The notes beneath the pieces were generated by a model. That model saw nothing but the letters and a program-made list of their open reading frames with translations. It made no database searches and was not told the origin of the DNA. A stretch of DNA of 16,857 bases from the IMG/VR virus record IMGVR_UViG_3300035698_015115; one strand, 5' to 3'. A program made the translations under genes and the position numbers. The number at the start of each line of letters is the position of its first letter. The first letter of the stretch is position 1. Shown one piece after another: positions 6,250-8,575 of the stretch. The stretch comes from a virus.

Positions 6250-7293
6250 ATGTCTAAAGTATCCGGAATAATTTCAGATAACGGCAAAGTTAAACGTTTT
6301 TTGAGCCCTACTTATAACTATGTATTTAATAGAGATAATGGGTTCTTTGCTCGTTGGGGTAAAACATTAGAAGATGATCCCCAATGCTCAGTTCAAGGTC
6401 CAGAAATACTTGACCTTGAAATCTCCGCAGGCAAATGTAGCGGCAATTGCAAATTCTGTTATAAAGCCAATAGTGAAGATGCTACTGAAACAAAGAACTT
6501 AACTCTTCCTCAATTTGAAGATATCCTTAACAAGATGCCTCCAACATTAACACAAATCGCCTTTGGTATTTGTGATGTGGATACAAACCCCGATTTTATC
6601 CCAATGATGGAGTTGTCACGAAGCAACGGAATCATTCCCAACTTTACATGTAATGGTAAAAAGATCGGCCGAAGATTTGCCGAATCCGCAGCTCGATTAT
6701 GTGGAGCCTGCGCCGTATCTATTGTCAATAAAGAACAATCTTATAATGCAATCGAGATGTTTACAAGCTTTGGAATGACTCAAGTAAATATCCACTTTAT
6801 GTTATCTGAGGAAACATATAAGCGCGCCTTTAAGATTATTGACGATATGAAAAACGATTCTCGGTTAGCAAAGATGAATGCTATTGTCTTTCTACAATAT
6901 AAACATAAGAATCCGAATTCCCCATTCCACTCGATGTTGGATAAAGATAAGTATCGTAAACTGGTAAAGTATTGCGAAGATGCTAAGATCGGATTCGGAT
7001 TTGATTCTTGTAGTGCTAATCTGTTCCTCGATGCAGTTGGCCCAAACGAGAAATATGAATTAGTTGCTGAGCCATGTGAATCGTCTTGTTTCAGTTCATA
7101 TATCAATTGTGAAGGCGAGTTTTTTCCTTGTTCGTTCTGTGAAGGTATGCAGGTTGAAAATGAGGAATGGACCACTGGATTGTCAGTTTTAGAAGCGAAA
7201 GATTTCATGTCTATATGGAACCACCCCCGAACTGAAACCTTCCGTAAAATGCTTCTAAACAACGGTAGAAATTGTCCGGTGTATGATATTTAA
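6250..7293 (+). CDS. radical SAM enzyme with Cys-rich C-terminal auxiliary (SPASM/twitch-like) domain
   Basis: CxxxCxxC motif CSGNCKFCY. Additional Cys clusters LCGACAV and CESSCFSSYINCEGEFFPCSFCEG...NCPVY. ATG 6250 is preceded by AAAGGA. The ORF track ATG 6217 lies inside the terminator hairpin, so 6250 is preferred. Confidence 0.75.
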   Translation: MSKVSGIISDNGKVKRFLSPTYNYVFNRDNGFFARWGKTLEDDPQCSVQGPEILDLEISAGKCSGNCKFCYKANSEDATETKNLTLPQFEDILNKMPPTLTQIAFGICDVDTNPDFIPMMELSRSNGIIPNFTCNGKKIGRRFAESAARLCGACAVSIVNKEQSYNAIEMFTSFGMTQVNIHFMLSEETYKRAFKIIDDMKNDSRLAKMNAIVFLQYKHKNPNSPFHSMLDKDKYRKLVKYCEDAKIGFGFDSCSANLFLDAVGPNEKYELVAEPCESSCFSSYINCEGEFFPCSFCEGMQVENEEWTTGLSVLEAKDFMSIWNHPRTETFRKMLLNNGRNCPVYDI

Positions 7294-7304
7294 GGAATTT
7301 GATT

Positions 7305-7562
7305 ATGAAACACAATATCTTATACGCAGCGTTGATTTTATTGATTATTGCACTTGTAATATTTGCAGTTAAGAATGAATTAAATAGAACGCCGCTTCAT
7401 ACGTCAAAAGGTAAAGGTATTATTGAACTTAATGGATATACTTATTATAAATGGAACAAAAAACTTGCCCCAACGCCTGAGACAATTAAACGATGTATTA
7501 AAGAAGCCCAAGCTGAAATAAAAGCCGAGAAAATTGAAGATGATAATTCCCATAGACGATAA
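7305..7562 (+). CDS. small membrane-anchored protein (single N-terminal TM helix)
   Basis: MKHNILYAALILLIIALVIFAV hydrophobic segment then a charged tail. AAGGA is 8 nt upstream of ATG 7305. The start is 11 nt after the rSAM stop. Confidence 0.5.
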   Translation: MKHNILYAALILLIIALVIFAVKNELNRTPLHTSKGKGIIELNGYTYYKWNKKLAPTPETIKRCIKEAQAEIKAEKIEDDNSHRR

Positions 7563-7803
7563 TGTGGTATTGAAGCTTAAAGAATGGTTAGGAAGAGATG
7601 GCCGACATCTTTTTAAGCAATATCAAAATAAGCACGGACGAGTTGATGCAGTGTTTATGGAAGGACGTCTTCCACATTCTGTACATTTTAGAGAAGGAAT
7701 GCAAGTACGAAATTTCCTTCGTTCTTTAGATGCATGTCAAAGTTGGGACGCACATGATTATGATGATAATTGGGTAAGATTAATTGAAGAGGCAATAAAA
7801 TGA
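7540..7803 (+). CDS. hypothetical protein (88 aa)
   Basis: ORF overlapping the previous gene by 23 nt and the next by ATGA. No recognisable motif. The start could also be GTG 7564. Confidence 0.45.
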   Translation: MIIPIDDNVVLKLKEWLGRDGRHLFKQYQNKHGRVDAVFMEGRLPHSVHFREGMQVRNFLRSLDACQSWDAHDYDDNWVRLIEEAIK

Positions 7804-8132
7804 AAATGCGCCAAGGTTTTGTAAGCAATTCAAGTTCTTGTTCCTTTGTGGCTGTATTAACCCCTAAACAAGATATAGAGCTTCGCAAGAATCTGAATGC
7901 CCTGCAGGTTGAAATTTTAGCATATTTACGAGAAGGTAAAAGGCATACGTTCAAGGGCGAAAAGGTCATAGTTTATCAAGGTGATGTCGCCGATGATCTT
8001 TATCAAGCTTGTGTTATGTTTAATTATGAACAACAACAGGAGGCTTTGGCTGAAAGTAACTTTGACAATCTTGTTGAAGTTTTTAATGCAATTGAATTTC
8101 CAAAAGATGCATTACAGGTATACGGAGATTAA
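7800..8132 (+). CDS. acidic hypothetical protein, paralog A, with conserved N-terminal tag MKMRQGFVSNSSSCSFVA
   Basis: ATGA overlap with the upstream gene. The N-terminal 18 aa are near-identical to the next gene, and the remainder is unrelated. Net acidic. Confidence 0.65.
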   Translation: MKMRQGFVSNSSSCSFVAVLTPKQDIELRKNLNALQVEILAYLREGKRHTFKGEKVIVYQGDVADDLYQACVMFNYEQQQEALAESNFDNLVEVFNAIEFPKDALQVYGD

Positions 8133-8134
8133 CA

Positions 8135-8575
8135 ATGAAGATCCGAAACGGTTTTGTAAGTAACTCAAGTTCTGCTAGTTTTGTTGTCAAATGGCAAGCA
8201 ACTCATGATGAAGGTGATTGGTCCATAAAGAAGATTTTTGCAAGGTTATATGATGTATTCTATTTTGAAGATACTGATCAGTTTGCTTGGGAAGACAAGG
8301 ATCGTTTCATAACCGATAGGGTTAATCGACTTCAATGGGGAACACCTGAACACCTCATCGAACAGGCCGAAGAATATTTTGATCATATGGAAACTCTTCA
8401 TGGTACCATTGAGGCTTTGGTTGAAAATACTGAGAAGTGTGGTCGGACCGTTGTAACTGGCGTATGGACATCAATGTATAATGAGCCTGAAGATTTCTAT
8501 ATGGCACCATCCTTTATGATGAGACTACATTGTGGCTCATATACAGTTATTGATGCACATATAGAAAACGATTAA
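8135..8575 (+). CDS. acidic hypothetical protein, paralog B, with conserved N-terminal tag MKIRNGFVSNSSSASFVV
   Basis: GGAGA is 7 nt upstream. The start is 2 nt after the previous stop. It shares 14/18 N-terminal residues and an identical 11-mer ggttttgtaag with paralog A. Confidence 0.65.
   Translation: MKIRNGFVSNSSSASFVVKWQATHDEGDWSIKKIFARLYDVFYFEDTDQFAWEDKDRFITDRVNRLQWGTPEHLIEQAEEYFDHMETLHGTIEALVENTEKCGRTVVTGVWTSMYNEPEDFYMAPSFMMRLHCGSYTVIDAHIEND

Follow-up and report, generated by a model that had tools for sequence, protein, structure and literature searches.

The virus record IMGVR_UViG_3300035698_015115 from IMG/VR, a stretch of 16,857 nt (hereafter, the window), encodes a radical S-adenosylmethionine (rSAM) enzyme and, shortly downstream, two small proteins, A and B, that begin with the same 16-residue segment (hereafter, the tag). 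Comparison with related viral loci makes a functional link between this enzyme and the tag very probable and points to a phage-specific two-component protein-modification system, otherwise undescribed. In such a system, one rSAM enzyme would recognize and modify the tag on many otherwise unrelated phage proteins; judging from conservation patterns and a predicted structure, we regard it as rather probable that the tag is the substrate. The proposal draws on the enzyme's fold class and the conservation of its cluster ligands, on a tag that is invariant as a peptide and strictly N-terminal, on the reciprocal linkage of both components, and on the lack of a third recurrent partner.

The tag and its linkage to the enzyme

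Sequence alignment of proteins A (110 aa; 7800–8132) and B (146 aa; 8135–8575), encoded on the + strand like all genes of this region, revealed N-termini (MKMRQGFVSNSSSCSF and MKIRNGFVSNSSSASF, respectively) of the common form MK(M/I)R(Q/N)GFVSNSSS(C/A)SF, with 13 of the first 16 residues identical and 24% identity overall. An earlier inspection of the letters alone (hereafter, the sequence-only reading) had described the two as paralogs sharing a leader-like N-terminus, and the shared N-terminus is borne out. The tag-coding segments span 16 codons each (7800–7847 in paralog A and 8135–8182 in paralog B; both +) and are marked by a direct repeat and by position-specific conservation, that of paralog B also by codon-level conservation. 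The 51-nt tag-coding stretch ranks first among the direct repeats of the region (D1; 76% nucleotide identity).

A search with paralog B retrieved small, unnamed metagenomic proteins in which the first 16 residues were invariant and the remainder was ~30% identical. Across the loci fetched for this study, the consensus M-K-x-R-x-G-F-V-S-N-S-S-S-(S/A/T/C)-S-F-(I/V)-(I/V) forms the very start of 259 distinct proteins, ranging from 24 to 279 aa (median 129 aa); 13 of the 16 tag positions are essentially fixed, and conservation drops abruptly past residue 18. A HMMER scan of 1.84 billion 50%-identity representatives identified at least 12,337 tag clusters (E ≤ 0.001), with the best-scoring stretch beginning at residue 1 in 148 of 150 among the matches listed. 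As the same tag stands at residue 1 of thousands of other proteins, the shared N-terminus of paralogs A and B is far beyond chance. All serine positions of the tag are encoded by both AGY and TCN codons and Arg4 by both AGR and CGN codons (third-position identity, 0.49), a mixed usage that implies selection on the peptide rather than on the DNA. A DNA-level cause of the conservation, such as a recombination site or an RNA element, was considered as well and is ruled out by this codon usage.

Once stripped of their tags, 254 proteins fell into 90 groups of bodies unlinked by BLAST. The body of paralog A had no BLAST relative among these 254 proteins, and paralog B belongs to a recognizable subfamily whose bodies carry a second motif, T.(W/F)TSM.N...DFG. 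Tagged proteins from the same locus were alike in 14 of 535 pairs, and the best match lay in another locus for 174 of 192 proteins. Recent tandem duplication was thereby ruled out as the source of the arrays, which are, by these sequence comparisons, sets of distinct, old families. The largest array seen comprises 14 tagged genes within ~8 kb (L093:2200–10500) and sits on a contig of 26 kb that had been assigned to a gammaproteobacterial metagenome-assembled genome (MAG); the contig is probably a mis-binned phage. In a structural model of paralog B (pLDDT 88), residues 1–10 form a low-confidence tail and residues 14–22 the first strand of a generic α/β sandwich.

Existing family collections give the tagged proteins no function. 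Neither Pfam, NCBIfam (release of June 2026) nor PADLOC has a name for the tag family, and 108 tagged representatives contained no Pfam domain, save for one zinc ribbon, and no informative PHROG. However, 68 of these 108 diverse proteins matched phrog_7397, itself of unassigned function; in the window paralogs, this match is confined to the tag region (residues 1–32 and 1–22). A cellular origin was examined with a narrower pattern, GFVSNSSSA, run against 185,579 species genomes. Of the 24 pattern matches, seven were confirmed, all on MAG contigs, and the system therefore looks viral.

The linkage of enzyme and tag was assessed from both sides, the counts being bounded by contig ends and by the flanks of 8–10 kb. 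Starting from the tag, 466 IMG/VR stretches matched its pattern; 36 loci were fetched, and 26 of them encoded a full-length enzyme homolog (35–54% identity) within 8 kb. Starting from the enzyme, 38 of 40 IMG/VR loci harbored between one and 11 tagged genes (median, five) within 10 kb. In these enzyme-seeded loci, 191 of 192 tagged genes were on the strand of the enzyme, and they were located exclusively downstream of it in 24 loci, exclusively upstream in four, and on both sides in five. Clustering of all open reading frames (ORFs) from ~90 loci placed tags in 81 and the enzyme in 76 of them, while the next family recurred in only seven; thus, no third recurrent gene family accompanies enzyme and tags in this set.

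Cultured phages extend the association to complete genomes. The enzyme is present in 172 cultured-phage records, mainly of the genera Pseudotevenvirus and Slopekvirus (e.g. RB43, GAP161, KP15, KP27, and Matisse), where its adjoining genes are untagged. A tblastn search of phages with paralog B returned no match, perhaps owing to masking of the tag by the low-complexity filter; a six-frame regular-expression scan of a whole RB43-type genome, by comparison, revealed one enzyme gene and exactly two tagged genes, ~20 kb away on the same strand. The two tagged proteins occur in 175 and 174 records, respectively, with genus counts nearly equal to those of the enzyme, and an RB43-type tagged protein matched phrog_7397 at 4.8e-117. 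In KP27, they correspond to KP27_130 and KP27_124. Throughout these phages, annotation goes no further than hypothetical proteins for the tagged pair (KP27 included) and a putative radical SAM protein for the enzyme, and a link between enzyme and tag goes undescribed. Taken together, the reciprocal neighborhood and the co-occurrence at the genome level mark paralogs A and B as likely clients of the enzyme.

The sequence-only reading had known of no comparable cassette in T4-like phages, a statement that does not hold at the sequence level: one enzyme gene and a pair of tagged genes are present in RB43, KP15, KP27, GAP161, and ~170 further cultured Straboviridae. The label T4-like need not apply to the window itself, as the only relatives of its major vault protein (MVP) homolog in the phage collection (41% identity) are from three uncultured huge-phage records (LR756500, LR756501, and LR756503). 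Megablast with positions 6000–8700 had no match among phage records, and a look-up of the exact enzyme sequence likewise had none. In RB43/KP27-type phages, the genes enclosed by the tagged pair encode a von Willebrand A protein of 748 aa (phrog_2426, KP27_128) as well as two PHROG families without assigned function, as is exemplified by Enterobacter phage EcL22g (L048:1269–5683) and by L098 (KP27_124 to KP27_130). A literature search, with subscription-journal articles mostly outside its reach, found no description of the system; the enzyme, mass spectrometry, and virion proteomics all go unmentioned in the KP15/KP27 and phiEap-3 papers.

The radical-SAM enzyme and its auxiliary domain

The enzyme gene spans 6250–7293 (+) and encodes 347 aa. 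Although the program-listed ORF starts at ATG 6217, this codon lies within a hairpin, whereas ATG 6250 is preceded by an AAGGA ribosome-binding site and alignments with homologs begin at residues 4–8 of the 6250 product; position 6250 is therefore the start, as the sequence-only reading had it. In line with the sequence-only reading, the protein combines a CxxxCxxC motif with a cysteine-rich C-terminal region. The CX3CX2C motif (C63, C67, and C70; 6436–6459, +) is predicted to provide the ligands for the SAM-binding [4Fe-4S] cluster, and seven cysteines (C254, C276, C280, C287, C294, C297, and C342) follow in the C-terminal part. There, statistics of cysteine columns over 59 homologs and a Pfam SPASM match predict an auxiliary-cluster domain (7009–7275, +).

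The proposal that this is a SPASM-type maturase of the peptide- and protein-modifying kind stands in part. In its favor, the Pfam SPASM profile (PF13186) passes, if marginally, with 22.5 bits against a cut-off of 21.5 (residues 287–349 of the ORF starting at 6217), and the nearest folds are those of maturases. However, of the profiles named by the sequence-only reading, Radical_SAM (PF04055) scored 21.9 bits, below its gathering cut-off of 29.5, and TIGR04085 (SPASM) gave no match at E ≤ 0.1. The cysteines, too, depart from a canonical SPASM domain with seven cysteines and two clusters: 58 of 59 aligned homologs retain C63, C67, C70, and four C-terminal cysteines (C254, C276, C294, and C342), while C280, C287, and C297 are confined to a subgroup. 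As only four of the seven C-terminal cysteines are family-wide, the conserved state, read from the alignment, is one auxiliary cluster (twitch-like) rather than a full two-cluster SPASM domain.

The family is too divergent for the Pfam profile, and its membership in the rSAM superfamily consequently rests on motif and fold. The spacing of the first two cysteines is unusually plastic among homologs (CX3C in 34 of 58 and CX6–15C in 24 of 58), and this variable cluster loop probably explains the weak Pfam score. An AlphaFold2 model of the enzyme, built from 36 homologs (pLDDT 94.4, pTM 0.92), displays the alternating β/α elements of the partial TIM barrel typical of rSAM proteins over residues 53–251; the N-terminal 50 residues form four short β-strands without a winged helix. 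Foldseek comparison of the model with the Protein Data Bank (PDB) yielded 83 matches at E ≤ 0.001, the best 50 of which are all rSAM enzymes. SuiB ranked at the top (E = 6.5e-11, TM 0.71), along with SkfB, BlsE, and CteB, followed by EpeE, TigE, anSME (4k39; E = 6e-7), PqqE, viperins (E ~3e-7), and MoaA; pyruvate formate-lyase (PFL)-activating enzyme scored E = 2.5e-5. At the sequence level, a profile of the enzyme family found nothing significant in the PDB; the best match was BtrN (E = 0.029), with which a C-terminal helix motif aligns weakly. Overall, sequence and model support assignment of the enzyme to the radical-SAM proteins with a SPASM/twitch-type auxiliary domain, peptide and protein maturases being the nearest solved folds.

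Relatives of the enzyme comprise at least 2751 clusters at E ≤ 1e-5, and the protein itself belongs to phrog_7293 (1e-84), a family without assigned function. In some homologs, the rSAM gene contains inteins or inserted genes, e.g. in P0137, which carries Hint/intein Pfam domains, and at L041:5261–7500 and L043:1–2010, where tblastn matches are split.

Candidate mechanism and alternative explanations

In the mechanism that we favor, the first ~13 residues of the tag would be a flexible tail at the N-terminus, preceding the first β-strand of the body. The enzyme would bind this tail, probably via its small N-terminal β-sheet domain and the barrel opening, and cleave SAM to generate a 5′-deoxyadenosyl radical that would abstract a hydrogen from a tag residue. 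Every tagged protein would receive the same modification, most likely a serine oxidation or a C–C or C–heteroatom cross-link within G6–F16, and the clients in the window would be the products of 7800–8132 and 8135–8575. Of the candidate chemistries, serine oxidation (anSME-like), a Phe-to-Ser/Asn or similar cross-link, and epimerization, each taken singly is unlikely. The tag as substrate, the residue attacked, and the benefit to the phage are all proposed from sequence, predicted structure, and gene context. As for that benefit, the location of these genes among early, accessory, and anti-defense genes (an Apyc1-family protein in the window, a Gad1 homolog with a PARP protein at a related locus) suggests, by way of speculation, that the modification matures or arms host-takeover proteins and that the tagged proteins are effectors.

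Several known systems resemble parts of this scheme, which in its working would come closest to leader-directed rSAM maturation (SuiB, CteB, and SkfB). The best structural matches, SuiB/StrB, CteB, SkfB, and PqqE, likewise combine an rSAM core with a C-terminal auxiliary Fe–S domain, are encoded beside their ribosomal substrates, and recognize a conserved peptide segment, a recognition that in the present case would be effected through the tag. Yet maturases of peptides that the ribosome makes and that are modified after translation (RiPPs) act on short leader–core peptides and usually employ a PqqD-like RiPP recognition element (RRE), whereas the putative clients here are folded proteins with the conserved segment at the extreme N-terminus. 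The RiPP-like arrangement envisaged by the sequence-only reading did not hold up: instead of a short leader/core precursor, the tagged proteins have the median length given above, the model of paralog B is a confident α/β domain, and neither an RRE nor a protease or exporter was detected by Pfam or found conserved by all-ORF clustering of the ~90 loci. anSME/AtsB offers a parallel in that a SPASM rSAM enzyme (fold match 4k39) modifies an entire protein, its site being a short Ser/Cys motif conserved near the N-terminus. It serves a single enzyme family, the sulfatases, as opposed to dozens of unrelated tagged bodies, its motif (C/S)-x-(P/A)-x-R has no equivalent in MKxRxGFVSNSSSxSF, and the phage enzyme has no NCBIfam or Pfam anSME match.

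QhpD is a SPASM rSAM enzyme that introduces thioether cross-links into a single dedicated, Cys-rich small protein, QhpC. Its target is thus likewise a small protein and no peptide natural product, but it differs from the phage system in its single substrate and in its thioethers, the phage tag being devoid of a conserved cysteine. ProcM is a lanthipeptide synthetase whose cyanobacterial products are short peptides and whose Nif11-type leaders of ~60–80 aa are removed; in all three respects (enzyme class, short products, and long, removed leaders), it is unlike the system proposed here. What the two share is the logic of one enzyme for many substrates, as prochlorosin precursors are described to be numerous, co-encoded substrates of the promiscuous ProcM, with a highly conserved N-terminal recognition segment and hypervariable C-termini (PMC10783134).

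Some observations weigh against tag-directed modification. Ten of the tag-seeded loci lack an enzyme within 8 kb (several of them are cut by contig ends), and three enzyme loci (L044, L070, and L082) lack a tagged gene within 10 kb; given the ~20-kb spacing of enzyme and tags in RB43-type phages, the missing partner may still be encoded elsewhere in such a genome. The enzyme has no PqqD-like recognition element detectable by Pfam, and its fold also resembles the nucleotide-acting viperins (E ~3e-7 as above; pVip profile, 17.9 bits). The tag, for its part, contains none of the known rSAM substrate motifs (neither C/SxPxR nor a cysteine for thioethers), and its invariance exceeds that of usual leader/core peptides, so that a constraint other than enzyme recognition may be at work.

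Four alternatives were weighed against the preferred reading. The tag might remain unmodified and act as a docking peptide that plugs interchangeable specificity subunits onto the enzyme, each steering the chemistry to another target, be it a host protein, a nucleic acid, or a defense molecule. The linkage data, with one enzyme and many tagged partners, fit this explanation equally well, as do the invariant tag on unrelated bodies and, in the model of paralog B, a tag ending in a β-strand suited to strand augmentation. There is also a precedent among variable phage proteins for docking through a conserved peptide at the N-terminus, namely in branched receptor-binding proteins (PMC13352976). 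We nevertheless deem docking unlikely: in the enzymes of nearest fold, the bound peptide is the substrate, a strand that serves docking alone would not usually hold 13 fixed residues, five of them serines, and neither a common target nor a further partner is conserved nearby in the ~90 loci. Somewhat less likely still is a sorting signal, read by other machinery, for capsid packaging or injection, membrane or compartment targeting, or degradation, with the rSAM gene merely syntenic. Such a signal has a model in phage T4, whose internal proteins reach the prohead via a conserved N-terminal signal on variable bodies. This capsid-targeting sequence, like the tag, is a short conserved N-terminus on polymorphic phage proteins; it is cleaved by the prohead protease, differs from the tag in sequence, and, to our knowledge, has no enzyme partner and no radical-SAM link. 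The ~20-kb distance between enzyme and tags in RB43-type phages and a weak match of one RB43-type tagged protein to a head–tail adaptor PHROG (1e-8) would suit a sorting role. Arguing otherwise, the linkage is reciprocal, same-strand, and usually immediate across enzymes that are 35–65% identical, and phyletic patterns agree in ~172 complete genomes. Moreover, inspection of the tag disclosed neither a hydrophobic core of the signal-peptide kind nor a T4-type protease site, and the T4 late promoter TATAAATA was not found in the window.

Alternatively, the enzyme could act on a nucleotide, DNA, or a small molecule, as do viperin, MoaA, BtrN, and BlsE or as in phage DNA hypermodification, and the tags would be unrelated to it. 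BlsE, viperins, and MoaA are indeed among the Foldseek matches, viperin profiles match weakly, the sole sequence-level hint in the PDB is BtrN, and the window contains nucleotide-metabolism genes; furthermore, a DNA modification of unknown nature was reported for the enzyme-bearing phages KP15 and KP27 (PMC5219037). However, that paper does not mention the enzyme, viperin scores are far under their curated cut-offs (17 vs. 180 bits), and across loci it is only tagged genes, and no nucleotide- or DNA-modification gene, that co-occur with the enzyme, rendering this explanation improbable. Finally, the enzyme could function as an activase, with a stable radical installed at the invariant Gly6 (R-x-G-F) of each tagged protein. 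The glycyl-radical motif is RVxG[FY], which the position of Gly6 between a basic and an aromatic residue loosely recalls, and PFL-activating enzyme is among the fold matches. Yet the register is off, with the arginine at –2 instead of –3, the motif would reside on the flexible N-terminal tail of small unrelated folds rather than in a protective barrel, PFL-type activases are missing the C-terminal, cysteine-bearing SPASM/twitch domain of the phage enzyme, and maturases match better; this explanation is thus very improbable.

Modification of the tag by the linked rSAM enzyme hence remains the preferred reading. In its fullest version, a dedicated viral rSAM tagging pathway would consist of one enzyme that confers one radical-derived modification of new chemistry on a 16-residue tag shared by >12,000 unrelated clusters, with up to 14 tagged proteins per genome, so as to arm early and anti-host proteins. 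This version is put forward tentatively, its combined claims adding up to something plausible but short of probable. If true, it would provide a function for at least 2751 clusters of enzymes and at least 12,337 of tagged proteins, including those of well-studied or therapeutic phages (RB43, KP15, KP27, GAP161, and Matisse), and would carry leader-directed rSAM maturation beyond small peptides, to folded proteins, and beyond bacteria, to viruses. If the early proteins of a changing repertoire all bore one mark, this would further inform how phages deploy them, and a genetically encodable, 16-residue tag on arbitrary bodies, served by a single modifying enzyme, would be of direct use in biotechnology. 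Tag-directed modification of folded viral proteins, if confirmed, would deserve a category of its own.

Gene order and neighboring genes

Within the window, the enzyme gene follows that of the MVP homolog (853 aa; 3625–6186, +), identified by its MVP_shoulder (1e-26) and Vault_3 (7e-11) Pfam matches. A G+C-rich hairpin, terminator-like or attenuator-like, starts 19 nt past the end of the MVP homolog and separates the two genes (6205–6230, +); it consists of an 11-bp stem with nine G–C pairs followed by CTTTTAT (–25.6 kcal/mol, z –2.35). Downstream of the enzyme, direct reading of the sequence placed the ATG of a small protein with an N-terminal hydrophobic helix (the TM protein; 7305–7562, +) 11 nt past the rSAM stop. 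The gene of an 87-aa small soluble protein (ATG 7540 or GTG 7564, to 7803; +) overlaps that of the TM protein. Paralog A begins in an ATGA overlap with this preceding gene, and paralog B 2 nt after paralog A. Both the hairpin and the tight succession of four small genes at 11-nt, overlapping, and 2-nt spacings had been noted in the sequence-only reading and are borne out, all on the + strand.

The same reading had put the whole set behind a single promoter (P2). A promoter-like site, TTTACA-N16/17-TATATT, does lie upstream of the MVP homolog (3558–3585, +), being the nearest strong consensus match 5′ of the cassette, and the identical hexamers TTTACA/TATATT recur at 8592–8620, with no equally strong match in between. 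The arrangement fits a single promoter to this extent, both sites being consensus matches and not proof of a promoter. The paired sites bracket the block from the MVP homolog to paralog B and possibly mark the early promoter type of this phage.

The TM protein, the 87-aa protein, and the MVP homolog were candidates for further members of the system, in keeping with the cassette as first proposed, but had no counterpart in any of the ~90 related loci; on gene content, they are local passengers. The TM protein matched no family in Pfam, NCBIfam, PHROG, or PADLOC, and the 87-aa protein gave a sub-threshold Pfam match to WWE.

Elsewhere in the window, genes for an NAD-dependent ligase, an AAA_28 kinase-like protein, and a DUF4406 protein are located upstream. 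Farther downstream are genes for a guanylate kinase (10524–11066), a metallophosphatase (11628–12173), a PAP2 phosphatase (12562–13317), and an RlaP-type nucleotidyltransferase (15557–16675); homologs of the metallophosphatase recur in six other loci, making up a seven-locus cluster with the window. A metallo-β-lactamase-fold protein of the anti-Pycsar Apyc1 family (13519–14382; 65 bits, cut-off 50) is encoded 5 kb downstream of the cassette.

Related loci displayed additional neighbors. On a 118-kb viral contig (L003:2098–4490), a homolog of Gad1 (anti-Gabija) and a WGR–PARP_reg–PARP protein are encoded directly upstream of the enzyme–tag cassette. Two further proteins, one MoxR-like AAA protein and one of 473 aa without assigned function, each occur near tags in six metagenomic loci and are adjacent in L017. 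An IS605-type pair (Y1 transposase and a TnpB/Cas12f-like protein; L006:13778–15469) on a viral contig of 79 kb lies ~1.8 kb downstream of an array of seven tagged genes, from which it is separated by three ORFs.

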